A stretch of DNA of 64,000 bases, from IMG/VR virus record IMGVR_UViG_3300024331_000007, positions 64,001 through 128,000 of that record; one strand, written 5' to 3'. The DNA is from a virus. Its lineage: Duplodnaviria; Caudoviricetes. Each line of letters starts with the position of its first letter. Within the stretch, counting starts at the first letter, position 1. The notes under the pieces were generated by a model. That model was not told where the DNA came from. It made no database searches and was given only the letters and a program-made list of their open reading frames with translations. Below are positions 2,527 to 62,365 of this stretch, piece by piece. A program made the position numbers and the translations under genes.

Positions 2527-2555
2527 TTGACGGCAACACGAAAATTTGGTATACT
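2527..2555 (+). promoter_or_regulatory. Sigma70-like early promoter of the small-ORF array operon
   Basis: TTGACG (2527-2532)-17 nt-TATACT (2550-2555), extended -10 TG; ATG 6 nt downstream with no SD. Confidence 0.8.
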
Positions 2556-2561
2556 TATTAC

Positions 2562-2903
2562 ATGGTTGAGAAAGACAAAACGACTGTGAAGCGCAAAAAG
2601 CGCACCGACCGTACTCACATCATCTATCGCCTTGCTGTTGCGAATATGGAGTACATTGGAATCACCGCCAAAACTCAATCGACGGTTTTGAAGTCTGTCC
2701 GTCTTCGTTTCGCGAAGCATGCAGAACGTGCCAGAAACGAAAACAAGCCGTGGCCTCTTTACAAGGCAATTAGGAAGTTTGGAATTGACCAGTTTGAACT
2801 GGAAATCGTTGAAATTCTCCGTGGCAAGGCTGCTGCTCATGCTCGCGAAGTTGAGCTAATCAAGGTTCGCAATCCCAAACTTAATCTGGCGAGTGCAAAA
2901 TGA
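2562..2903 (+). CDS. Small GIY-YIG nuclease-like protein, first gene of the array operon
   Basis: HIIY...YIGIT...RFAKH...LYKAIRKFG...REVELI...LN pattern. Confidence 0.7.
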   Translation: MVEKDKTTVKRKKRTDRTHIIYRLAVANMEYIGITAKTQSTVLKSVRLRFAKHAERARNENKPWPLYKAIRKFGIDQFELEIVEILRGKAAAHAREVELIKVRNPKLNLASAK

Positions 2904-3115
2904 AAGTTGGCGATTGTGGTTGGGTAAAAATTCATGCTGACATGACTCAGAAATCTTTTGGTCAGATTGTCACTATTGTAACGGGTGGTGCTGTTACTGT
3001 TTTTCTTGTTCGATCTTCTTACCATCACGGCGCAATTGCTCCTTATTTTGAGGACGAGTTTGAATTGATAGAAAATGAAGGCGAAGCAATGGCTTTACTT
3101 TTGGAGTATGCATGA
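2900..3115 (+). CDS. Array member 1, SH3/KOW-like (MKVGD) with tail GEAMALLLEYA
   Basis: ATGA overlaps at both ends; shared tail. Confidence 0.8.
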   Translation: MKVGDCGWVKIHADMTQKSFGQIVTIVTGGAVTVFLVRSSYHHGAIAPYFEDEFELIENEGEAMALLLEYA

Positions 3116-3366
3116 TAGATAAAAATGGTCATGCGCTATCTATCGGTGATTGGGTAAAGTTCCGTCCCTCCGAAAAATTCCAAATCTATTTTGGAGAAAT
3201 TGTCGGAACGTGGCAGGGTCAAGAGTTCAATAAAGTTGGCGTGTGCGTTCGTGTTATTAATTATCCTCACCCACCTCAAAAAGATGGAACTTGGCATATG
3301 TATGATGCTTCCATGACATTCTTGACCAAAGAGCAATTATTGTTGGAACTTTTGGAGAACGCATGA
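3112..3366 (+). CDS. Array member 2, YopX-like start (DKNG...IGDWV) with tail KEQLLLELLENA
   Basis: SD GGAG inside previous tail; ATGA overlap. Confidence 0.8.
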   Translation: MIDKNGHALSIGDWVKFRPSEKFQIYFGEIVGTWQGQEFNKVGVCVRVINYPHPPQKDGTWHMYDASMTFLTKEQLLLELLENA

Positions 3367-3587
3367 CTGAGTGGCAGGGTTTTGAACTTCCAGATGGATC
3401 ATTGATTCGGTATCGTGACAATGGCGACGAACGTATTGGATCGATATTCACTAATATGTATCACCAGAAACAATTTTTAGACATAAACCCAAAAGCCAAA
3501 ATGTCAAATTGGAACATATCGCAATGGGAAATGTATTCAATAGCAACAGAAGCCGACGCAATGCTTTATTTGTTGGAGAACGTATGA
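3363..3587 (+). CDS. Array member 3, LPxG type, tail TEADAMLYLLENV
   Basis: ATGA overlap; shared tail. Confidence 0.8.
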   Translation: MTEWQGFELPDGSLIRYRDNGDERIGSIFTNMYHQKQFLDINPKAKMSNWNISQWEMYSIATEADAMLYLLENV

Positions 3588-3814
3588 CGAGCGCAGAATT
3601 TAAATCGCTGAAGCCGAATATGATTGTCTATCATGTTGAGGGAGGCAAAAAGGTTTTCGGTCATGTGTCTGCGATATATCGCGCCTATCCAAACCTTTTA
3701 GGTTTCAGTAGATTTAAAGATGCGTGGGCATCTTGGATTCCAATAGACGATCCAAAAGATTTTCATATGGCATCAGAAGCCGAATCTTTTTTGTGGAAGC
3801 TGGAGAACGCATGA
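3584..3814 (+). CDS. Array member 4 (start revised to MTSAEF), tail SEAESFLWKLENA
   Basis: ATG at 3584 overlaps previous TGA after GGAG. Confidence 0.8.
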   Translation: MTSAEFKSLKPNMIVYHVEGGKKVFGHVSAIYRAYPNLLGFSRFKDAWASWIPIDDPKDFHMASEAESFLWKLENA

Positions 3815-4047
3815 GCACATTGATTGGTCAAGATCGTAACGGACAATTGGTTGAGGTTGGCGATATTGTTCTGGTCATAGATCAGGAGATTCCAATTGAA
3901 TTGGCAGTCATTCTTGATTTTCAGTATCCATTTACGGACCCGATTGTTCTAAAATTTGCAGATGGTTCTGAAGTTCATAGGCAATCGGCAGAAATTGAGA
4001 AGGTTTCAAATGAAAAAGCTGTGTTGTGGAAGCTGGAGAATCTATGA
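3811..4047 (+). CDS. Array member 5 (start revised to MSTLIG), YopX-like DRNG...VGDIV, tail SNEKAVLWKLENL
   Basis: ATGA overlap after GGAG. Confidence 0.8.
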   Translation: MSTLIGQDRNGQLVEVGDIVLVIDQEIPIELAVILDFQYPFTDPIVLKFADGSEVHRQSAEIEKVSNEKAVLWKLENL

Positions 4048-4262
4048 TTAACCTTAATATGCTCCCAGATGGAACACTCCTTTGGTACGAACAAAACGAA
4101 GACAAGATTTTGGGAACATATTCCAAGAACACTGGCGAGTTTGTTGTTAGAGGGGTAGTTGATTCTCGTACAAATGATGCGTGGCCTATCAGGAATTTAT
4201 CAATGTATCGTATTGCGACTGAATCAGAAGAGATGATGTTGTACATGTTGGAGAACGCATGA
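4044..4262 (+). CDS. Array member 6 (start revised to MINLNM), LPDG type, tail TESEEMMLYMLENA
   Basis: ATGA overlap after GGAG. Confidence 0.8.
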   Translation: MINLNMLPDGTLLWYEQNEDKILGTYSKNTGEFVVRGVVDSRTNDAWPIRNLSMYRIATESEEMMLYMLENA

Positions 4263-4438
4263 ATCTACTTGGACGAATCGTACTGGACATTTTCGTGTTT
4301 GGGTTTCCTGTGCTTGCCATCGTTGGATTTGCCGCAGGCTGGAGAATTGTGAAAGTCGGCGGGCCAAAATTTGATCGTGAAGTGAAAGACTTTTTCACGT
4401 CCAAGGAAAAGTTGATGCTCAGAAAGTTGGAGTCATGA
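4259..4438 (+). CDS. Array member 7, 59 aa single-pass membrane protein with tail SKEKLMLRKLES
   Basis: Hand translation MNLLGRIVLDIFVFGFPVLAIVGFAAGWRIVKVGGPKFDREVKDFFTSKEKLMLRKLES; below the ORF track cutoff; ATGA overlaps at both ends. Confidence 0.8.
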   Translation: MNLLGRIVLDIFVFGFPVLAIVGFAAGWRIVKVGGPKFDREVKDFFTSKEKLMLRKLES

Positions 4439-4641
4439 ATATTGGTGATTACGTTAGGGTGCATTTGGAAACCGAGGCGAGGATTCGTGTTGGACGTATA
4501 GAAGAAATTGAAAAATACAGTGAATGCGCGTTTCCATATTACGTTCGATTCTCCGCCAGCAGAACTTGCTCTTGCTCGCGGAATGAACTAGAGATAATGT
4601 CTGAAGCTGAAGCAATGCTATACATGTTGGAGAACGTATGA
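4435..4641 (+). CDS. Array member 8, KOW/SH3-like (MNIGDYV), tail SEAEAMLYMLENV
   Basis: Clear paralog of 5650-5859. Confidence 0.85.
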   Translation: MNIGDYVRVHLETEARIRVGRIEEIEKYSECAFPYYVRFSASRTCSCSRNELEIMSEAEAMLYMLENV

Positions 4642-4829
4642 AGATCGGTGATTTGGTTTACGTATTGTTAGACCACAAACATCCAGTTGTGGGGGAAATT
4701 ATTTCCCTTGAGCCTGAGATTCGACTGAGGAATCTGTATGGACGAGAAGCTCCGTTGTTCTCTACAAGAGATACAATTAGGTTATTGACAGACGGCGAAG
4801 CGATGCTCTACAAACTGGAGAACGCATGA
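4638..4829 (+). CDS. Array member 9, KOW/SH3-like (MKIGDLV), tail TDGEAMLYKLENA
   Basis: ATGA overlap; shared tail. Confidence 0.85.
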   Translation: MKIGDLVYVLLDHKHPVVGEIISLEPEIRLRNLYGREAPLFSTRDTIRLLTDGEAMLYKLENA

Positions 4830-5020
4830 ATCCGAAGATTGGAGATTTTGTTCGAATTAAACAAACTGGAGAAGTTGGGCTTATTGTTAATTTGTTTCCA
4901 AAGGCCCGATACCCATTTTTGATTAATACTCAATCTATTGGTAATAACATGTATATGGAACGTGAGTTTCAATTTGCCACAAACGAAGAGGCCATGTTAT
5001 ACAAACTGGAGAACGCATGA
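4826..5020 (+). CDS. Array member 10, KOW/SH3-like (KIGDFV), tail TNEEAMLYKLENA
   Basis: ATGA overlap; shared tail. Confidence 0.85.
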   Translation: MNPKIGDFVRIKQTGEVGLIVNLFPKARYPFLINTQSIGNNMYMEREFQFATNEEAMLYKLENA

Positions 5021-5241
5021 AAAGAAAAACAAAGGTCGGTGACATAATTAGATTGTCATTCGCAGATTCGTCCATACTGCCAAGAATCGGACAGGTTGTT
5101 GATAAGAGAAAAACATTTTTCATCGTTGAAATTAATAAATGGAGATGGCTTGTAAAGCATACCGCTTATGGAGGGAAAAGATATTACATTACTCATTTGA
5201 CGGACGAAGAGGCGATGTTGTACAAGTTGGAGGATGCATAA
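5017..5241 (+). CDS. Array member 11, KOW/SH3-like (KVGDII), tail TDEEAMLYKLEDA
   Basis: ATGA overlap at start, TAATG overlap at end. Confidence 0.85.
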   Translation: MKRKTKVGDIIRLSFADSSILPRIGQVVDKRKTFFIVEINKWRWLVKHTAYGGKRYYITHLTDEEAMLYKLEDA

Positions 5242-5417
5242 TGTTTAAGGTCGGTGATTACGTTCGAATTTTGACGGGGCCGCGAAAAGGTATGATCGGT
5301 GAAATAACATCCACATATGGAAGTGGTATGTATGTTCATCCATTCTACATGTATCCATTCGAAGTCGAATACGTTTCACCCGAAGAAGCAATGGTCTACA
5401 AACTGGAGAACGCATGA
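5241..5417 (+). CDS. Array member 12 (start revised to MFKVGD), KOW motif protein, tail SPEEAMVYKLENA
   Basis: VGDYVRILTGPRKGMIGEI is a canonical KOW motif. Confidence 0.85.
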   Translation: MFKVGDYVRILTGPRKGMIGEITSTYGSGMYVHPFYMYPFEVEYVSPEEAMVYKLENA

Positions 5418-5653
5418 GGAAAGAAGACGGACTTGCGTTGCCAGAGGGAACGTTTTTATTTTACGATAATCCTCGTCTTGGAAGAAGTTGGTACGGTACT
5501 CTTCGTTTTGAGAGAGATCAGTATGGACAGATTGAGCCTTCGTTCGAATGGACGAGGAACGGTGATAAAAAATTCTGGCCGTTGAGGGCATGGAAATTAT
5601 ATCGTCTCGCCACTGATGAAGAAGTTATGCTATACCTTTTGGAGAACGCATGA
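5414..5653 (+). CDS. Array member 13, LPEG type, tail TDEEVMLYLLENA
   Basis: ATGA overlap; shared tail. Confidence 0.85.
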   Translation: MRKEDGLALPEGTFLFYDNPRLGRSWYGTLRFERDQYGQIEPSFEWTRNGDKKFWPLRAWKLYRLATDEEVMLYLLENA

Positions 5654-5859
5654 AGATTGGTGATTACGTCAAAGTCAAGCTGGAAATTTCCAAGCAGGTT
5701 CGAGTTGGCCGCATTGACTGTATTTTGAATAGTGGACTCTTTCATGAATATCCGATTCGTGTTGCATTTCCAGATGCAAAATTTTGTTCATGTACTCGGA
5801 ATGAAGTGAAGATTATCTCAAATGAAGAAGCAATGCTTTGGATGTTGGAGAACGCATGA
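5650..5859 (+). CDS. Array member 14, KOW/SH3-like (MKIGDYV), tail SNEEAMLWMLENA
   Basis: Paralog of 4435-4641 (VRVGRI...CSCxRNE). Confidence 0.85.
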   Translation: MKIGDYVKVKLEISKQVRVGRIDCILNSGLFHEYPIRVAFPDAKFCSCTRNEVKIISNEEAMLWMLENA

Positions 5860-6089
5860 AAGAAATAGATGCCAAGCAGCTTCCAAAAGATGCTACAATT
5901 TTTTATAATCAGGGTGGTCGTAGCAGAGCTTTTGGTTATATAGAGAAAAAAGATGGAGTATTCTATTTCATTCCAGCGTATTTTAGAGATAGCGATGTCG
6001 ATTTAAATCGATGGCGCATTTCTGCATGGTATGCCTACGAAGTAATGTCCACAGAAGAATTTGTTCTTTGGAGATTGGAGAACGCATGA
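5856..6089 (+). CDS. Array member 15 (start revised to MKEIDA), LP type, tail STEEFVLWRLENA
   Basis: ATGA overlap after GGAG. Confidence 0.8.
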   Translation: MKEIDAKQLPKDATIFYNQGGRSRAFGYIEKKDGVFYFIPAYFRDSDVDLNRWRISAWYAYEVMSTEEFVLWRLENA

Positions 6090-6295
6090 CATTCGATGAT
6101 ATGTGTGAACTCGAAGAAGGCACTGTTTTGTGGTGTGAAAATACTAATTGCCCTATACTTGGAAAATTGCATTTTCATAACGGCAACGAGCCGATGTTTC
6201 AACACAATTCAGTGGGATGGCTGATCAGAGATGCACATTTATATTCAGTTGCCACCGACGAAGAGGCCATGTTATACACATTGGAGAACGCATGA
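6086..6295 (+). CDS. Array member 16 (start revised to MTFDDM), LEEGT type, tail TDEEAMLYTLENA
   Basis: ATGA overlap after GGAG. Confidence 0.8.
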   Translation: MTFDDMCELEEGTVLWCENTNCPILGKLHFHNGNEPMFQHNSVGWLIRDAHLYSVATDEEAMLYTLENA

Positions 6296-6513
6296 CAAAG
6301 GAAGAAATTTGGAGTCTCCCCTCAGGATCATATCTCTGTTGTACAAATATGTTTGGTGATGCAAGGTTTGGACGGATTCGAAAGAGAAAAGATGCAAGAA
6401 TCTTTCATACTTTGACAGGGGATAGCAAGCCATTGTCATTTAAAATTAGCAGATTTGATTATTATCGCGTAGCTTCAAAAGAAGAATACGTTCTGTGGAG
6501 ACTTGAACGATGA
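6292..6513 (+). CDS. Array member 17 (start revised to MTKEEI), LPSG type, tail SKEEYVLWRLER
   Basis: ATGA overlap after GGAG. Confidence 0.8.
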   Translation: MTKEEIWSLPSGSYLCCTNMFGDARFGRIRKRKDARIFHTLTGDSKPLSFKISRFDYYRVASKEEYVLWRLER

Positions 6514-6959
6514 CTAAATCTCCGCTGGATTTTGAAACCATCGAGGAAGCCGAAGAGTTTATTCGAGGAGTTGAGGATTTAAATTTTCTTCCTGAAGATT
6601 TACAAATCATAGCTGTACTCGGCGATCATCATAGTTATGAAAAAATCGTTAATCCAACCGAAAAGGTTAAGTTGGCTGCTGTAATGGGGTTTGGTCGGAA
6701 TATTTTCTTCATGAAAGACCCCAGCGAAGAAATTTGTCAAACAGCGGTTTCAAATGATGGAGATGTAATCAAGTACATCAAGAATCCATCGCTGGAAACG
6801 CAACTCATCGCTGTTGCTAAAAGACCGTTGGCAATTGCATGGCTCAAAAATCCATGTGAGGAAGTTCAACTTGCGGCTATACACAAAGACAGCCGCGTGA
6901 TTGCTCACATAAATAATCCAACCGAAAATGCATTGATGTTGGCCAAACTAATAAACTAA
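6510..6959 (+). CDS. Helical repeat protein, DUF4116-like; last gene of the array operon
   Basis: Repeats of the form NP[ST]ExxQLxAV...xxIxyIxN. Confidence 0.65.
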   Translation: MTKSPLDFETIEEAEEFIRGVEDLNFLPEDLQIIAVLGDHHSYEKIVNPTEKVKLAAVMGFGRNIFFMKDPSEEICQTAVSNDGDVIKYIKNPSLETQLIAVAKRPLAIAWLKNPCEEVQLAAIHKDSRVIAHINNPTENALMLAKLIN

Positions 6960-6997
6960 AAATGCTCCCTAAACTCAATCAGTTTAGGGAGCATTTT
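6959..6997. terminator. Probable bidirectional terminator
   Basis: Perfect 14 bp inverted repeat AATGCTCCCTAAAC / GTTTAGGGAGCATT between convergent genes. Confidence 0.8.
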
Positions 6998-7012: not shown

Positions 7013-7558
7013 TTACTTGTTTCTAACAAATCTAGTAATTCCTAACTTGGAAAGAGCTTCCTGAACCATTTTAGTTTGACGAATGCAATCCTCAATGGAA
7101 TCGTGTGTGGCTTCTGGCGCTTCGATGTAAACCAAATCCAGTAATGTGCGGCTATCTCTTACCGCTCCATAACCCCAAGGAACTCCCTTACCGTATTCTG
7201 CAAAGATGTGAGTCAGTAGGGTAATATCCAGCGTCGGGCCTTGGCACCAAATTCTATTCTTCTGCCAGCAAAATTTAATGAGACTATCCAATGCTTCTGG
7301 TACTGGAACACGTCCTACATCATTGAAAATTTTCGCTTGTACTTCTGGCGAGCGCATAGTCCACCACCAACACGTATCGTCATCCTGACTTCTATGAGCC
7401 TGTTCGTCAAGGGACAGAAGCAAATCCAATTTTGGGTTTGTTGTAAAATCAGTAGTGATTTCAAATGGGTTGAACGCAATCGCAGAAATGCTCAAAATCT
7501 GGGCGTCGGGTTTTACGCCCATTGTTTCTATATCAATAGTTATATCAGTGAAGTTCAT
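7013..7558 (-). CDS. DEDDh 3'-5' exonuclease (Rv2179c / exonuclease VIII-like)
   Basis: IDIET, WCQGPTLD, RDSRT, HDSIEDC motifs. Confidence 0.8.
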   Translation of the reverse strand: MNFTDITIDIETMGVKPDAQILSISAIAFNPFEITTDFTTNPKLDLLLSLDEQAHRSQDDDTCWWWTMRSPEVQAKIFNDVGRVPVPEALDSLIKFCWQKNRIWCQGPTLDITLLTHIFAEYGKGVPWGYGAVRDSRTLLDLVYIEAPEATHDSIEDCIRQTKMVQEALSKLGITRFVRNK

Positions 7559-7572
7559 ATAACGATTATGAA

Positions 7573-8514
7573 TCAAACAAAGTTTGTTGTCAATTGATAA
7601 TATAGAAATTTCTCAAGTAGAACTGGAATGGTTTTATGGTCCCAATACGGAATGATAAGCAGAGGAATATTATTTTTAATACAATATGTTTCTTTGATTT
7701 TATCGCGCTCCTGAATTTGGCGAAACATTTCATCATCAGAAACAGATTTGCTGCCAAAATTGAATTTATCATAATGCTGTTTGCCATGAAATTCAATCAT
7801 CCCGCACAACTTTCCATTGCGAAATAATCCGAAATCGAATGGTAGTGTATTGACATTACGGCAATTCTTTATTCGATACTGTGGCTGAAACGAAATGCCT
7901 AATCTTTCTAGTTCTCTCCTAATTGATCGTTCGCCTTTAGATTCTCTACACGTAGGGCATCCTTGCCCATTTAGATGCGCGGATGGTTCTTGTTTGAAGT
8001 CTCCGTGCTTAGGACATACAATTAGAACTTTAGTATGCATATCAACGTAGACGCATTTTTCATATGAAAATTTTGAATTGTGTTTTTTATTACCTCTATC
8101 GATGAATATCGGCAGTGTCAATTTATCGTCGCGTCTTGCGCAAATCAGACACCCATATCCTTGTAAATGCGCCGTTGCTTCTTGCTTGAAATCTCCGTGA
8201 TCTGGGCAAGTTATGATTACAGAATTATTAGAGCCTGTGTAAGATGTTCTTTCGTAAGTAAATTTATAATGATGAGTTTTTCTTGCCTTCTCTATAAATT
8301 CTTGATTACTCATCTTTGAAGTTCCGCCGCATTTTGGACAACCTTGACCATTGATATGATTCTTTGGAAGTTGCCAGAAATCTCCGTGGGTCGGACAACC
8401 AATACAAATTTTGGTGTGATTATTGAGATAGACTACTTTATCGTAATTGTGTTTGTTCCGATGGGTAGGTTCTATCGACCCAATAAATTTTTGTAAGTTT
8501 GATCTACTAATCAT
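7573..8514 (-). CDS. Free-standing endonuclease: CxxHG/GCxxC zinc repeats plus C-terminal PD-(D/E)XK (Vsr/DUF559-like) domain
   Basis: Three CPxHGDFxQ...HxxGxGCxxC repeats; LPFDF...IEFHGKQHY...RDKIK...IPYW. Confidence 0.8.
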   Translation of the reverse strand: MISRSNLQKFIGSIEPTHRNKHNYDKVVYLNNHTKICIGCPTHGDFWQLPKNHINGQGCPKCGGTSKMSNQEFIEKARKTHHYKFTYERTSYTGSNNSVIITCPDHGDFKQEATAHLQGYGCLICARRDDKLTLPIFIDRGNKKHNSKFSYEKCVYVDMHTKVLIVCPKHGDFKQEPSAHLNGQGCPTCRESKGERSIRRELERLGISFQPQYRIKNCRNVNTLPFDFGLFRNGKLCGMIEFHGKQHYDKFNFGSKSVSDDEMFRQIQERDKIKETYCIKNNIPLLIIPYWDHKTIPVLLEKFLYYQLTTNFV

Positions 8515-26600: not shown

Positions 26601-26909
26601 ATGGATCGTCGTCTTACTGATTTAGAAGGAACTAGCCTACCAAATGGTACTCCATTGAAGACTTGGCCTCGTCCAACTGGCTCTTTTCACGAGTGGCGTT
26701 ATGGAATCCTTGAACTCAGAAAAGGTCAGCCGTGGTTTCAATCCATTGCAGGTGCCGCATGGCCCATTCAATATTGGGATGACTTTGCTTTGGCATCGAA
26801 AGAAGAGTTTGTGATGAAGAAACTGGAACATGATAGAAGGAAATTGGAATCCTCCACGGACTTCTTCAGAAAATATTCAGATATTATCTCTGAAACTGAG
26901 AATAGCTAA
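26601..26909 (+). CDS. Array-family (LPNG type) domain fused to a head-protein motif (start revised to MDRRLT)
   Basis: SLPNGT...WPI..W...ASKEEFVMKKLEH then SSTDFFRKYSDIISE. Confidence 0.7.
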   Translation: MDRRLTDLEGTSLPNGTPLKTWPRPTGSFHEWRYGILELRKGQPWFQSIAGAAWPIQYWDDFALASKEEFVMKKLEHDRRKLESSTDFFRKYSDIISETENS

Positions 26910-39721: not shown

Positions 39722-40306
39722 ACATTTACTACATTTACGCATATCTTCGTAAAGTTCAAACACTACATGGAGAAGCTGGAACCCCCTTATTACATCGGCA
39801 AGGGGTGTGGTCCTAGAATGTATGTGAATCATTCGGATTGCGGCGGAAAAATACCCAAAGATCGTCGTTTCATTTTGAAGATTTTTGAGAACTGCTCTGA
39901 AAATCAAGCGTTTGAGCTAGAACGAGCGTTGATAAAGATATTCGGTAGGATCGACATTGGAACTGGGTGTCTTCGTAATCTTACGGATGGTGGAACTGGC
40001 TCTAGTGGTAAAATCATCACCGAGGAATCTCGTAAACGAATGTCAATTGGGCAGAGTAGGAGAACTGAATACCCAAAAGGTTTGCCAGTATCGGAAGAAA
40101 GAAGACAAGCTCAAAGAGAAAAGATGACTGGCAAACCAGCATGGAATAAAGGAAAATCTTGGTCTAAAGAGACTAGACAAAAGTTATCAGATTCCCATAT
40201 GGGTAAGACTAGCCCAAGAAAAGGTGTTACCTTATCTGTTGAAACCAAAAGAAAAATTTCAGAATCCCTTAAAAAGAGAAACCAAATTATCACCACTGCG
40301 ACATAG
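39718..40306 (+). pseudogene. GIY-YIG/NUMOD3 endonuclease split by a +1 frameshift
   Basis: MNIYYIYAYLRKVQTLHGEAGTP in frame 0; PYYIGKG...LRNLTDGG in +1 frame; junction ACCCCCTTAT at 39781. Confidence 0.8.
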
Positions 40307-42875
40307 AATCTATTCCGCTTGCGTCATTTGGCATAGCAATTGAACGAACACCGCGAGGTTGAAGTTTTGGTACTTCCTTACCTGCATCATCAACATCTCT
40401 TTCTGGTGTACTCAGCAACGAAAAGGGACTCAATTTGCCAGTTGTATTTTCGTGCTTTTCAATTTCTGCTGGCTTACGAAACTTTGTACCAAGATGCACA
40501 TTTGTCCAAGTTAAAGGACCTGACCATCCAGTTGAAGATGGTACATCAGCTTCTAATAGTCCAGATTCCTGTAATAGGTCATCAATAATACCCTTGCTTT
40601 CTGGAAGTTCTTTTTCATTGTTCTTAGCTGAAATTCGTCTGAGTTCTTCACGAAATTCTGGATTACCCATGAAGAACGCTTCAAAGAACGAACGAGAACC
40701 AAATCCCTTATCTTTGAACTGACCATTTCGAGTAATTATCCAGCCGAGTTTCTTGTTTTCGGCAGGCCCAAAGATAACTGAGAAGTACGACTTTTTCCAA
40801 ATCTGATTGTCTGGATTGTTGACAATTCTCTCAAAGTCTAAATCTTTCAACAACTTTTCCATAATCAACTTGTCTTGATTTGCTTTGGCTTCCTTGCCTT
40901 TAAAACCAAACAGTTCAGTTAATTGGCTTTCTTTTACGGGACGATTTTTCATAAAATTAGTGTGAGCTTTAGATAGTTTTCCGTCGGTATCAAACATTGG
41001 CTCCCATTGATACTCGTCTGTGGTATCCTGTTCTTCATTATCTTCAAAATCATCCATATCTTGAAAATCTTCATTTAGTGATTCGCCTAAATATGCTTTC
41101 GCCATCAAATGACCCTTATAGAAATCATCCGTGGCAAGCGTTTTAACGTAGTCTTCAAAGCTGCCATTTCCAAATTCCGATGTGTCGTAGCCTTTTGAAT
41201 CTGGTTCAACAACATACTTCTGCCAAAGATCAGTGAGATATTGTTTCAATTCTTCGGGCGACTTTCCTTCTGGTTTGTCGTATCCTCTGGCAGCAAAGTC
41301 TTTTGCCTTGGCGTCCCGTTCATATTTTGCCAGATACTTCTGAAATTCTGGATCGTTGTCCAATTCATTGTTTTCAACGATCTTCTTGAGTCTGCTCATT
41401 TCAGATTCAAGATTCATCTGTCCTGTGCCTCTAATTTCATCAGAGGTAGGAATGGAGCCGTTCATACCTCCATACTCAAAAGGGCGGTAATCCTCAGCAT
41501 CTTCCTTGGCTTGGTGAATTAATGTTAAGTCTTCCTCACCAGCAATCTTTCCAGCGTCTTCTTGTTCTCGACGTGCGCTATTTCCGCTGTATCCGCATAT
41601 GTCACAGCCTTCTCCGCCACAAGAAATACATTGCTCGCCTGTGAATTTTTCAGGTGTGTCTTCAATATCTTCATTTACTTCGCCAGTTACTGCATTTCTA
41701 TCTGAATCTTCAGCACGTTTCCAATTATAATCTTCCTGTCCCAATTCTATAGCTTTTTGTTCTTCTGGTGTCAATTCTTCTTCATTATCAACGCCGCCGT
41801 CCATAATAACATCTTGGCCTTCGCCTTGACCATTGGCAGCATTAACCCACTTTTCAAATTCGTCCTGTTCTTTTACCTTGCCATGTGAACGATAGGCTCT
41901 CATAACATGTGGAAGCGCAAGCTGGCTCTCTTCATCCAGAGATTCACCATCAAACGCATCTTCGAACACTTCATCATCAGCTTCTAATTCTCCAGCGGTT
42001 CCAGTCAAAGCTGGGCTGTTCTTGGCATATCCACCCTTTGAAGAAAGGCTTGCCAAAGTCTTCTTGATTTCGAGGTAACGCTCTCTTGTAGCAGCGAGGA
42101 TCGAAGAAACGTAAGGCTTCGAAGCAGATTCAGACTTCTTCTGCTTATGATAAAACTTGTTCAGGGAAACCATTTCTTCGACAAGCTGGCAAATGTCACG
42201 GCCAACATTATCGTATGGAGTTCCGCCATTTTCAATGTGACGAGCCATAGCACGAGCCGCTACAAGGTTCTTGAATGGCAATAGGAAACGTTCATTCTTG
42301 GCATTGACCAAATAAATTCTGGCAATGCGGCGGCTTCGGCTGCCGCGAACTTCGGGATCAACTTTTGTGGTGTGCTTAATGACGATCTTGATTGGCTCGC
42401 CGTCCAGTTTTTGGTGGCTTGTCTTAGCTGTGCCGTCAATAGGCAAAAACGTGCCTTCAAACATAGGCAAAATGTCTTCAGTGACAAGTTTCAAATCTTT
42501 TTCGACATCGCGACGATTAATCTGACTCTTGTTAATGTTTCGAACATCAAAACCGAGTAAATGCATTTTAGCGAACTGGCGAATATCTTGTAGGAAGGCA
42601 TACCATTCTGTGCGAGTCTCTGTATCGGAGTCGCCCAAGTCCTGACCAAAATAGATTTTAAGGGAGTTTGCGCTCTCGCTGTCGTCCAACAATGAGACAA
42701 CCACAGTGCCTTTATTTTCCCCTTTTTTATTAACGAAGTTGAACGAAAAGACCTTTATTTCACCGGGATCGTCGGTGAAATGACCAGCTTCATCAACCGA
42801 ATCGGCTATGTCAAAGCGATCTTTTAGAAGGTTAATCAAGTCTGAGCTACAATTCTCGACGGGAAGTGGGCACAT
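40290..42875 (-). CDS. Large acidic hypothetical protein, possibly virion associated
   Basis: 861 aa; CISCGGEGCDICG; several xxE-[SDN] sites. Confidence 0.6.
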   Translation of the reverse strand: MCPLPVENCSSDLINLLKDRFDIADSVDEAGHFTDDPGEIKVFSFNFVNKKGENKGTVVVSLLDDSESANSLKIYFGQDLGDSDTETRTEWYAFLQDIRQFAKMHLLGFDVRNINKSQINRRDVEKDLKLVTEDILPMFEGTFLPIDGTAKTSHQKLDGEPIKIVIKHTTKVDPEVRGSRSRRIARIYLVNAKNERFLLPFKNLVAARAMARHIENGGTPYDNVGRDICQLVEEMVSLNKFYHKQKKSESASKPYVSSILAATRERYLEIKKTLASLSSKGGYAKNSPALTGTAGELEADDEVFEDAFDGESLDEESQLALPHVMRAYRSHGKVKEQDEFEKWVNAANGQGEGQDVIMDGGVDNEEELTPEEQKAIELGQEDYNWKRAEDSDRNAVTGEVNEDIEDTPEKFTGEQCISCGGEGCDICGYSGNSARREQEDAGKIAGEEDLTLIHQAKEDAEDYRPFEYGGMNGSIPTSDEIRGTGQMNLESEMSRLKKIVENNELDNDPEFQKYLAKYERDAKAKDFAARGYDKPEGKSPEELKQYLTDLWQKYVVEPDSKGYDTSEFGNGSFEDYVKTLATDDFYKGHLMAKAYLGESLNEDFQDMDDFEDNEEQDTTDEYQWEPMFDTDGKLSKAHTNFMKNRPVKESQLTELFGFKGKEAKANQDKLIMEKLLKDLDFERIVNNPDNQIWKKSYFSVIFGPAENKKLGWIITRNGQFKDKGFGSRSFFEAFFMGNPEFREELRRISAKNNEKELPESKGIIDDLLQESGLLEADVPSSTGWSGPLTWTNVHLGTKFRKPAEIEKHENTTGKLSPFSLLSTPERDVDDAGKEVPKLQPRGVRSIAMPNDASGIDSMSQW

Positions 42876-46007: not shown

Positions 46008-47348
46008 TCATAGTTGTTCAGCTTCTTGCGTTTCCATATCAAGAACCCCAGCATCGTTCTTTTTGGTTTCGTCTTCAAGGAATTTGAAATTCTTGAGTTT
46101 GAAGGAATCACATTCGTCCAGACGATCAATACGTACCACAACACCCTCCGCTGGAACTTCTTTGTTGTTGAACGGACACATCTGATCGTAGACGTAACGA
46201 GTCTCCAGTTTGTTCATAAACTCATCCCGCCATCTCGCAAGGCCATCTTCGCCCCATGACGATACATTTGGTGCCCAACCTAAAAATAGAGAAACGGGTC
46301 CATAGAACAATTCATGCATCATTTGAAGCCCGTATTTATTGCAAAATTCTCTCACTTGTGGAACAGAAAGTTCAAGTGTTTTTCCGTCCACATTTGTAGT
46401 CTTAACACGATAAACGATAAACTTGTGTTCGCCCTTGGCACAACCATAATGATATGGGCGTCCACCAGATGCAGCTTGAATCGCTCCCCCGTCTGGTTTG
46501 TAACCAACAATCTCTCCATAGACAGTGTAGCTTGCTGGAATCTTGTCTTCAATCTCCTTCGCAACAACACCCCAAACATCTTCGCCAAACTTTCCTCCCA
46601 CGCTTTTAACAACCTTGCGTGAACTATACGCGAACTTGTATGTTGCCTCTTCGAGATGCGCTCCGCATTTCTTCATCAACTTTGAAATCCAGCACAGGTT
46701 TCTGTTGACAAGTAGCTTTCCGTAAATGGCAGAAGTTCCATGCCACTTATCGCTGATGCTTACATAGTCAGTTGGTTGAATTTTATGGATATTCTTACGA
46801 AGATTGTCAGTATCAAAATGAAATTTGAATTGTCCATCTACGATACTGTTCTTCAAAGAAAGCGCCTTGGAATTAACATTGCCACTAGAAGAACCACTCT
46901 TCCCAACAATATACTTTTGACAAATATCATGTCCGTCTATCTTATCAAAGGCATCTCCTACCTTCAGTGGAATGCTTCGTCCGTCATTGTGACCAAATAC
47001 ATATTCCAAGCTGCTCAAAGGAATCCAGAACCCCTCGCTCTTAACCCTGAGAAACTTTGCACACTTTATTCTGCGATGCGTTTCTAAATATCCAGTTTTT
47101 GATGAATCTATGTTACCCATTTCGGCACGACGATATAGATTGTTTGCAGACACAAACTCATGACTGAGTTGGGTTTCAACTGGAAAGAAAAGGCCGAGTT
47201 CTCCAGATTGAGCATCTTTATGGACAATTACGTTATTGCCAAAAATGATAGCAGACTTGATACGATCTGCTTTCGGAATCTGGACAAATTCTTTAAGTGA
47301 CACAATTGTAGCACAGTAATTTTTGTTTTTTGGTTCTTCAAGATTCAT
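46008..47348 (-). CDS. ATP-dependent RNA ligase (Rnl2 / DRB0094-like)
   Basis: DKWHGTS (motif I), YGEIVG (III), FIVY (IIIa), EGVVV (IV), KLKN (V). Confidence 0.85.
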   Translation of the reverse strand: MNLEEPKNKNYCATIVSLKEFVQIPKADRIKSAIIFGNNVIVHKDAQSGELGLFFPVETQLSHEFVSANNLYRRAEMGNIDSSKTGYLETHRRIKCAKFLRVKSEGFWIPLSSLEYVFGHNDGRSIPLKVGDAFDKIDGHDICQKYIVGKSGSSSGNVNSKALSLKNSIVDGQFKFHFDTDNLRKNIHKIQPTDYVSISDKWHGTSAIYGKLLVNRNLCWISKLMKKCGAHLEEATYKFAYSSRKVVKSVGGKFGEDVWGVVAKEIEDKIPASYTVYGEIVGYKPDGGAIQAASGGRPYHYGCAKGEHKFIVYRVKTTNVDGKTLELSVPQVREFCNKYGLQMMHELFYGPVSLFLGWAPNVSSWGEDGLARWRDEFMNKLETRYVYDQMCPFNNKEVPAEGVVVRIDRLDECDSFKLKNFKFLEDETKKNDAGVLDMETQEAEQL

Positions 47349-47404
47349 GCGACACCTTTTCTGTAATTGTAGCAAATTTCCGAATGATTTGCAATAGGTT
47401 TAGG

Positions 47405-61638: not shown

Positions 61639-61893
61639 TCATGACCACTCCAGCATGAACAGTACATATTCAGATTTGCTTTTAAATGTGAAAGTGAGTA
61701 TATCAGTCCCCCAAACTGCATTAACTTTGATACCGAAATGTTCCATCCATTTTTGGCAGGCAAAATTCAAAGACTCCTGCGCCGATTGACTATCTTGTTT
61801 ATATTTTTTGGGGATGGTTGAAAGATAATCATTTGCCTTCATAAATGCGCTTCCCATCGTTTGAACATCAACTGTTAATGACTCGTCATTCAT
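61639..61893 (-). CDS. Second array member, tail FKSKSEYVLFMLEWS
   Basis: TGGAGTGGTCATGA junction. Confidence 0.8.
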   Translation of the reverse strand: MNDESLTVDVQTMGSAFMKANDYLSTIPKKYKQDSQSAQESLNFACQKWMEHFGIKVNAVWGTDILTFTFKSKSEYVLFMLEWS

Positions 61894-62129
61894 GACCACT
61901 CCAACATGTACAAAACATAATCTTCTTTGCTATCAAACACGATGTATCCATAACGCTCGTTTTTCTTTCCTTTGTTTTTATGAACAAGAATAGCACGAAA
62001 AGCGTCATGATATCTTTGATTCAATTCTTCCTGTGTCATTAGTATAAGTGTATCTGCTCCAAATAACGATTCCCATGCATTCAAGTGGGCTGAATAGATG
62101 GCATCAAATCTCGCTCGATATTTTTTCAT
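61890..62129 (-). CDS. Second array member, tail FDSKEDYVLYMLEWS
   Basis: TTGGAGTGGTCATGA junction. Confidence 0.8.
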   Translation of the reverse strand: MKKYRARFDAIYSAHLNAWESLFGADTLILMTQEELNQRYHDAFRAILVHKNKGKKNERYGYIVFDSKEDYVLYMLEWS

Positions 62130-62365
62130 GTCCACTCCAATGTCGTTAAAACAAATGATTCCTTGTTTTCAAATTCAAGGTAGTACCATCCTTGTCCGCG
62201 TTCATCATCTATTGTTAAAAGCCTAGCGTTGCATTTATCCTTGAAAAATTTAACAAGGGTGTCATCGTCGTAATTAAATGAGAACTCGTATCGGCAAGCG
62301 TCAATAACATGACACCATACCTCGGGTATATCAGTTACCTTTACGAGTTGTTTTAGATGTCCCAT
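62126..62365 (-). CDS. Second array member, tail FENKESFVLTTLEWT
   Basis: TTGGAGTGGACATGA junction. Confidence 0.8.
   Translation of the reverse strand: MGHLKQLVKVTDIPEVWCHVIDACRYEFSFNYDDDTLVKFFKDKCNARLLTIDDERGQGWYYLEFENKESFVLTTLEWT

Follow-up and report, generated by a model that had tools for sequence, protein, structure and literature searches.

Why should 17 consecutive small genes of a large phage encode proteins whose bodies diverge widely and whose ends are nearly the same short peptide? The question is raised by positions 2527-6997 of a 64,000-nt stretch of DNA (hereafter, the window), which corresponds to bases 64,001-128,000 of the 359,890-bp IMG/VR virus record IMGVR_UViG_3300024331_000007, recovered from soil and ~90 per cent complete. 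The earlier note on this DNA pictured the mini-proteins as unrelated, variable domains that carry a portable C-terminal tag. We regard a different answer as probable, namely that the locus is an early, coupled operon in which 16 of the 17 mini-genes are old, diverged paralogs of one undescribed barrel-plus-helix family, and that the 'tag' is the helix of that family.

The mini-gene array and the predicted fold of its products

The array consists of 17 consecutive open reading frames (ORFs) of 58-84 amino acids (aa) at 2900-6513, listed here with the sequence type (A or B) of the predicted barrel:

2900-3115, + strand: m01, A-type barrel, degenerate tail EAMALLLEYA
3112-3366, + strand: m02, A-type barrel, degenerate tail KEQLLLELLENA
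3363-3587, + strand: m03, B-type barrel (LPDGS...W.I..W..Y)
3584-3814, + strand: m04, B-type barrel
3811-4047, + strand: m05, A-type barrel
4044-4262, + strand: m06, B-type barrel; AlphaFold model me94da32b6f81 (predicted local distance difference test [pLDDT] 83.1; 5 strands and helix 61-71)
4259-4438, + strand: m07, membrane mini-protein and not a barrel, with one transmembrane helix (Kyte-Doolittle 19-mer 2.46) and tail KLMLRKLES
4435-4641, + strand: m08, A-type barrel; closest paralog m14 (45 per cent identity, tail removed)
4638-4829, + strand: m09, A-type barrel
4826-5020, + strand: m10, A-type barrel
5017-5241, + strand: m11, A-type barrel; stop TAA, TAATG junction with m12
5241-5417, + strand: m12, A-type barrel; sole member past a Pfam cut-off (KOW)
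5414-5653, + strand: m13, B-type barrel
5650-5859, + strand: m14, A-type barrel; AlphaFold model mced5ec43335c (pLDDT 92.4)
5856-6089, + strand: m15, B-type barrel
6086-6295, + strand: m16, B-type barrel
6292-6513, + strand: m17, B-type barrel, tail EEYVLWRLER

In most members the tail follows the consensus [ST]-x-E-E-A-M-L-[YW]-x-L-E-N-A, which is degenerate in m01, m02 and m07. The claim that one pattern ends every member holds as a consensus, as judged by eye (14 of the 17 tails fit it loosely, and L-E plus 1-2 terminal residues is found in all 17), and fails as a literal pattern, which ~6 of the 17 fit strictly.

With the tails removed, the local sequences cluster as an A type (K-I-G-D-x-V...G-x-I) and a B type (L-P-x-G-x-x-L...W-x-I-x-x-W-x-x-Y), and the two types are interleaved along the array. 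When homologs were added, the full-length A and B profiles aligned with each other over 73 columns (Prob 98.6 per cent, E 8e-16). AlphaFold models of one member of each type, m14 (from a 91-sequence alignment) and m06 (from a 40-sequence alignment), share a topology of five strands (residues 6-10, 17-25, 36-39, 45-48 and 53-56 in m14) followed by a C-terminal helix (58-67 in m14), which is the tail (block pLDDT 93-96 in m14). Fold searches returned Tudor, PWWP, KOW and eS4 barrels as neighbours (Z 7-8.8), and the m14 model superposes on PWWP and extended-Tudor domains over 66-68 of its 69 residues at 2.3-2.5 Å, helix included; the viral structural neighbours are all uncharacterised small phage proteins. 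On these models, the barrel mini-proteins are predicted to belong to the SH3-like/Tudor/KOW beta-barrel fold class.

The picture of unrelated domains joined to a portable tag is therefore not supported, given the alignment of the A and B profiles, their common modelled topology and the tail being, in the models, a helix of the domain. The earlier note had named, as incompatible with its proposal, a tail that is an integral helix of one ordinary domain family with no shared partner; of these two elements, the models favour the integral helix.

As the earlier note had supposed, no named family covers the mini-proteins in Pfam and PHROG scans. Only m12 passes the Pfam KOW (PF00467) cut-off (26.8 bits against 22.3), the other array members having no match or one below the cut-off, and two of 91 homologs scanned against KOW match at E<=0.1. 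Matches to Pfam DSRB (PF10781) lie below its cut-off of 25 bits (14.1 for m08 and 11.9 for m09) and span the N-terminal 26-32 residues only. No PHROG match at E<=0.01 was found for 16 of the 17; the match of m10 to phrog_16289 (E 0.0019) extends over 21 residues, short of family membership. Faint precomputed matches to Pfam DUF7205 on a few homologs were absent from the scans made here, and no literature on that family was found. Neither a comparative review of jumbo phages nor further full-text literature searches yielded a description of the barrel family.

The family is widespread in public metagenomes. When 1.84 billion proteins were searched with a profile of the 17 members, 173 representative clusters (E<=1e-3) were retrieved, nearly all of them 60-95 aa long, matched over their full length and ending in ...[ST][DE]EEAML[WY]xLEN(x). 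At least 44 family members lie at more than ten loci of the genome studied here. On the metagenomic contig L022 (16.5 kb), 38 members follow one another in tandem, with the junction TTGGAGAATTCATGA (L-E-N-S-stop), and a further 20 lie in a 20-kb piece of L025, a phage contig of 353 kb, where LEN with a TAATG junction is present; in the contig of a relative, ~11 small genes (17 here) stand between genes for 113-aa and 154-aa proteins. Diverged paralogs, tandem arrays, varying copy number and saturated synonymous sites together mark the barrel family as a lineage-specific expansion. Many public entries (P0018, P0022, P0048, P0077, P0078, P0093 and others) begin with M/L-E-[VT]-G-[EVT]-[RSF]-M ('MEVGERM'-like), a peptide obtained when the upstream tail (...LEN[AS]-stop) is translated in the +2 frame; the relatives hence share the junction, and the extensions are a systematic miscall of the start. 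In IMG/VR, searches with two degenerate DNA tail patterns found nothing, and none of the 44 pattern matches from a related-locus search was confirmed by tblastn.

Larger relatives of the barrels (153-257 aa) are encoded at 147,645-149,591 of the genome (L014). Two have a Cys-rich N-terminal region, one barrel and the tail, and a third has two barrels with a single tail at the end, so that fusions, too, make use of the barrel module. In two other phages (L022 4050-5390 and 11610-12887; L025 7107-8456), a CCA-adding/poly(A) polymerase-type enzyme has barrel arrays on its flanks, as does an RNA ligase in L022; an RNA ligase with a PHA02142 OB-fold domain is encoded at 46008-47375 (- strand) of the window. 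The position of the arrays beside polymerase and RNA ligase genes may reflect simple synteny or, alternatively, a connection with tRNA repair.

The operon is completed by the following features, which, like the 17 overlapping ORFs, lie where the earlier note had put them:

2527-2555, + strand: sigma70-type promoter TTGACG-17-TATACT with extended-10 TG, the best match on this strand (10/12)
2562-2903, + strand: GIY-YIG nuclease-domain protein, 113 aa, first gene of the operon (Pfam PF01541, PHROG)
6510-6959, + strand: 149-aa helical repeat protein (NP[ST]xE.QL.AV units), ATGA-coupled to m17 (phrog_5925, weak DUF4116)
6959-6997, no strand assigned: intrinsic terminator with a 17-18 bp stem and T-runs on both strands, common to the convergent gene at 7013-7576

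From the GIY-YIG gene through the repeat gene there are 18 junctions, 17 of them ATGA and one TAATG (m11/m12), and after mini-genes GGAG typically stands 5 nt before the next ATG. By its stop/start overlaps, its internal Shine-Dalgarno (SD) sequences and a single strong promoter and terminator, the locus is predicted to be a translationally coupled operon. The -10 element ends 6 nt upstream of the GIY-YIG ATG (window 2550-2564), which leaves no room for an SD between them, and a near-leaderless or leaderless transcript is predicted for this gene; for the genes that follow it, the SD sits inside the tail of the upstream gene. Promoter-like sites as a class are not above shuffle expectation in the region. 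A second, equally good sigma70-type promoter lies at 2299-2327 on the - strand (each 10/12, both with TG) and points away from the first, with ~200 bp between them; the back-to-back pair looks like a divergent early control region.

The first gene appears, from its profile matches, to be a member of the GIY-YIG nuclease family: it passes the PF01541 cut-off marginally (22.8 bits against 22.6) over profile positions 3-78 of 78, and it matches four PHROG homing-endonuclease families (E 3e-8 to 0.0023). The 149-aa repeat protein matches phrog_5925, of unknown function, over residues 64-145 (E 2.3e-25). The tail-like end of this protein is a truncated copy of its own repeat. We rejected it as a conserved partner of the arrays, as no homolog is present in the L022 or L025 pieces and its only two paralogs in the genome lie at 137.6-138.9 kb.

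Other products of the window include a T4-type large terminase, a tail sheath and a gp15-like protein, which identify the virus as a jumbo myovirus. Its relationship to isolated phages is remote. Neither megablast of the locus nor tblastn of a typical mini-protein homolog matched any of 50,697 phage records, and tblastn of an 861-aa protein of the window (40290-42875) against isolated phages gave distant, partial matches to jumbo phages only. The stretch is present in just two sequencing runs, both of soil-metagenome DNA and one of them probably its source, with no RNA run listed; contigs from the two runs contributed nothing further. Next to the terminator-sharing gene, a 313-aa protein (7573-8514, - strand) has three zinc-ribbon-like repeats (CP.HG.F.Q....H..G.GCP.C) followed by a different C-terminal domain.

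Similar endings on other body types

Endings like the tail are also found on other proteins of this phage. In 61 of 638 crude gene calls, the loose motif (hydrophobic-L-x-x-L/F-E plus 1-2 residues) lies no more than four residues from the C-terminus, as compared to 1.0 expected from its internal frequency, and in nearly every case exactly 1-2 residues come after it. Besides the barrels (44), three further families, which we call C, D and E, carry such an ending.

Family C, a second expansion still larger than that of the barrels, consists of ~49 coupled mini-genes at 245,000-268,500 of the genome (L027, L028), outside the window, mostly joined by AAGTTGGAATCATGA and conforming to the pattern MTDKEFV.S.YP.A...AW..A...I...ML.KLES. 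Its predicted topology is alpha-beta-beta-beta-alpha with dsRBD/NinX-like structural neighbours, and in the models the motif ends a helix of ~22 residues; close kin (L034) alone yielded relatives of this family. In family D, a helical body is followed by the ending ...S.x.YVL[FY]MLEW[ST]. Its five members in the genome include genes at 138,070-138,527 and the three in the window listed below, and nine tandem genes with the D ending are found at 3515-5704 of L025. Family E comprises five tandem membrane mini-proteins (1-2 transmembrane segments) at 129,156-130,519 of the genome (L033) that end in [FMV]L.K[LF]E. plus 0-1 residues (e.g. RLMLRKLEE, RFLDKLES), and two similar genes lie at 1129-1621 of L025. 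The tail of m07, the membrane protein of the array, is of the C/E type, and its likeness to family E is limited to the tail. Elsewhere in the window lie the following features:

26601-26909, + strand: lone member of the barrel family, in which the tail helix (SKEEFVMKKLEH) is internal, with ~23 residues after it
61639-62365, - strand: three coupled family D genes, with only the last strand and the helix in common with the barrels

The same terminal peptide thus closes proteins of unrelated folds: the barrels, families C and D, and family E together with m07. In profile comparisons, the similarity is restricted to the C-termini both for barrels and D (20 columns, P 2.5e-5) and for barrels and C (12 columns, P 0.0012).

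These observations favour a widened form of the earlier proposal, in which the C-terminal motif would act as an autonomous signal, directing ~100 small proteins that differ in fold towards a single partner or fate, such as a protease, a hub protein, the membrane or a compartment. We consider it unlikely, although it accounts for several facts. A helix on membrane proteins can have no role in capping a barrel. Forty-five other ATGA-coupled genes of the genome have unrelated C-termini and place their SD in other frames and residues, and coupling alone therefore does not create the motif. The same families and endings recur in the distant 353-kb phage.

Against an autonomous signal, no partner was found, and the models place the motif within an integral helix in both the barrels and family C. 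Internal placement of the helix is tolerated in three cases (the lone member at 26601-26909, a member with a 40-aa extension and the two-barrel protein P0139), from which it follows that a free C-terminus is not required. In the two phages compared, the variants of the tail track the family (LEN in barrels, LEWS in D, LES in C, KFEE/KLES in E) and not the phage, which fits inheritance better than co-evolution with a phage-specific partner. Moreover, an amphipathic C-terminal helix encoded over an in-frame GGAG could converge on hydrophobic-hydrophobic-x-x-L-E. We are similarly doubtful of the corresponding historical claim that an ancient autonomous ending with one partner or fate is carried by ~100 small proteins of this phage, of at least four unrelated body types (~1 gene in 6), and by the same families in distant jumbo phages.

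Several candidate identities for the tail were rejected because the tail motif does not fit their consensus: a T4-type prohead-protease site (L/I-x-E), an ssrA-like degron, a PDZ ligand, a clamp-binding peptide and a cationic membrane-targeting helix. A homodimer prediction with two copies of m14 scored 0.02 and was not used as evidence either way.

As to whether the ending is separable from the bodies, the barrel helix is modelled at pLDDT >90 and superposes on the packed helix of PWWP and extended-Tudor domains, and the ending of the membrane proteins must be free of any barrel. The reading of the tail as the helix of one barrel family must also be weighed against four points. First, tail-stripped A and B profiles built from the 17 local sequences only, and since superseded by the wider profiles, gave no significant alignment; part of the full-length 73-column score therefore comes from the tail. 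Second, the packing of the helix on the barrel is deduced from pLDDT and full-length superpositions. Third, the conserved hydrophobic residues of the tail (A, M, L, W/Y and L in six consecutive positions) lie on more than one face of the helix, which is more than a simple cap would need. Finally, a purely structural role leaves unexplained why membrane proteins and other folds bear the same ending.

Junction DNA and selection on the tail

The final tail codons (TTGGAGAACGCATGA) are frozen and also supply the next gene with its ribosome-binding site and start, and L-E-N-A-stop is nearly fixed as YTG GAG AAC GCA TGA. At 15 of the 17 junctions the final 15 nt hardly differ, and the E(+1) codon is GAG in 16 of 17. 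Upstream of these codons the synonymous variation reported by the earlier note in EAMLY is borne out: all six codons are used for Leu(-3) and four for Ala(-5). Among 14 members, Nei-Gojobori proportions of synonymous (pS) and nonsynonymous (pN) differences are 0.85 (saturated) and 0.26 for E-E-A-M-L, and 0.58 and 0.02 for L-E. Because the synonymous sites of E-E-A-M-L are saturated while the peptide has been kept, the tail peptide is under selection.

Elsewhere in the genome, L-E is encoded by codons that do not form an SD (CTA GAA, TTG GAA), and some members in L025 end in TTG GAA AAC TAA followed by a separate AAGGAG, which makes L-E-N independent of the SD role. These findings, together with the contrast between pS and pN in E-E-A-M-L, uphold the earlier contention that selection acts on the peptide beyond the ribosome-binding site.

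The near-identity of the junctions could instead reflect a recombination handle, with identical boundary DNA allowing mini-gene cassettes to be shuffled, gained and lost, and the tail left as a scar. The interleaving of A and B types, the different copy number in the relative and the 15-nt junction being the sole near-identical DNA in the array would all be expected if this were so, and the last strand and helix common to family D and the barrels look like the product of a junction-proximal crossover. We nevertheless judge this explanation improbable. Fifteen nucleotides are short for homologous exchange, there are neither recent conversion tracts nor long identical repeats, and the peptide is kept where the junction DNA differs, as in LENS with TTGGAGAATTCATGA in L022 and LEN with TAATG in L025. 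The only repeated DNA in the array is the final 45 nt, at 60-78 per cent identity, and the copies are therefore old and not the result of recent conversion.

That the tail is kept solely as the SD and start/stop overlap of the next gene, with no selection on the peptide, is very improbable: the near-identical 15-nt junctions, the E(+1) GAG and the lower pS at L-E than in the rest of the tail fit it, yet the peptide is kept where synonymous sites are saturated, Leu is invariant although TTG GAG is a weaker SD than AAG GAG or GAG GAG, L-E-N is retained where the Glu codon is GAA, where the neighbouring genes are not coupled and where a separate SD follows the stop, and other coupled genes put their SD in other frames and residues. 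The earlier note had allowed that SD and overlap nucleotides might explain the tail fully; this is contradicted for positions -9 to 0 and survives as an added constraint on the last 4 codons.

According to the barrel-family reading, the operon would be transcribed early from the host-type sigma70 promoter, and its genes would be translationally coupled. Each barrel product would consist of five strands forming an SH3/Tudor/KOW-like beta-barrel, which an amphipathic helix of ~10 residues, [ST]-x-E-E-A-M-L-[WY]-x-L-E-N, closes at the C-terminus. This helix, as the most conserved part of the domain, would be held by selection on the peptide, and its L-E-N-A-stop segment would be dual-coding, being constrained also as nucleotides by the SD and the overlapping start of the next gene. 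The domain would have undergone a lineage-specific expansion to at least 44 copies in this 360-kb phage and to arrays of 20-38 in other uncultured large phages. Because of the early placement, the lineage-specific expansion and the variable loops, we infer that the variable barrel loops and strands may form a library of small binders directed at host or defence targets right after infection. The constant helix would cap the barrel and expose a single invariant face, with which a common partner might or might not make contact.

Significance and comparison with known systems

Most small early phage proteins have no function on record, yet this class has yielded host-takeover factors and anti-defence proteins. 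Defining the family by a confident fold and a simple signature makes it possible to group hundreds of 'hypothetical' genes from soil and peat metagenomes. The locus is also a clean example of dual coding, the last codons of one gene serving at the same time as the ribosome-binding site and start codon of its successor, and this matters for gene calling. The locus also presents one C-terminal motif on several unrelated families of the same phage; if this motif were a docking or sorting signal, it would amount to a new organising principle for phage proteomes, a proteome-scale code and a handle for finding the shared partner, and if it is not, the locus is still a useful model of mini-gene array expansion. 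Already known are the barrel fold and the expansion of small domains in jumbo phages (PMC7824862). The barrel family, the dual-coded junction and the multi-family ending are absent from Pfam, PHROGs and the literature searched.

By fold, the closest known proteins are the SH3-like/Tudor/KOW/PWWP barrels (PHF19 Tudor, 6wau; Pdp1 PWWP, 2l89; ribosomal eS4 KOW; PetP, 2n5u; PsaE). Like them, the mini-proteins have a ~55-residue five-strand barrel with an N-terminal G-D-x-V hairpin and a G-x-I strand, and PWWP, extended Tudor and eS4 domains have a helix at the same place after the barrel. The scores (VIA-align Z 7-8.8, Foldseek TM-score 0.65-0.72) are in the tool's 'common arrangement' range. Sequence identity, however, is 9-24 per cent, and those families are not characterised by the invariant E-E-A-M-L-[WY]-x-L-E-N helix.

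In size and architecture, the mini-proteins resemble stand-alone SH3-like mini-proteins such as E. coli DsrB (PF10781), DUF1918 and DUF2187, which are ~60-aa single-domain barrels; the likeness consists of weak N-terminal Pfam matches (E 0.02-0.2) and a language-model neighbour at 0.88. The matches are below the cut-offs (14 bits against 25), and in the DsrB-type proteins there is neither the tail motif nor an array.

Short C-terminal motifs shared by many proteins of one genome are found in poxvirus ankyrin-PRANC/F-box proteins and in encapsulin cargo-loading peptides, where the motif is separable and the receptors are an SCF ligase and the interior of an HK97-fold shell, respectively. Unlike these motifs, the ending described here forms the terminal helix of the predicted fold in both of the largest families, and no candidate receptor for it was found.

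The closest parallel for the expansion is the ~35-copy zinc ribbon of Bacillus phage G, a lineage-specific expansion of a small domain in a jumbo phage (Iyer et al. 2021, PMC7824862). That study does not mention the barrel family; it describes the functions of such jumbo-phage expansions as unknown and thought to be tied to regulation or conflict (PMC7824862). Both cases involve tens of copies of a tiny domain in a genome of >200 kb. The folds are different, and, unlike the zinc ribbons of phage G, the copies described here lie in start/stop-coupled arrays in which the last codons of each gene form the ribosome-binding site of the next.

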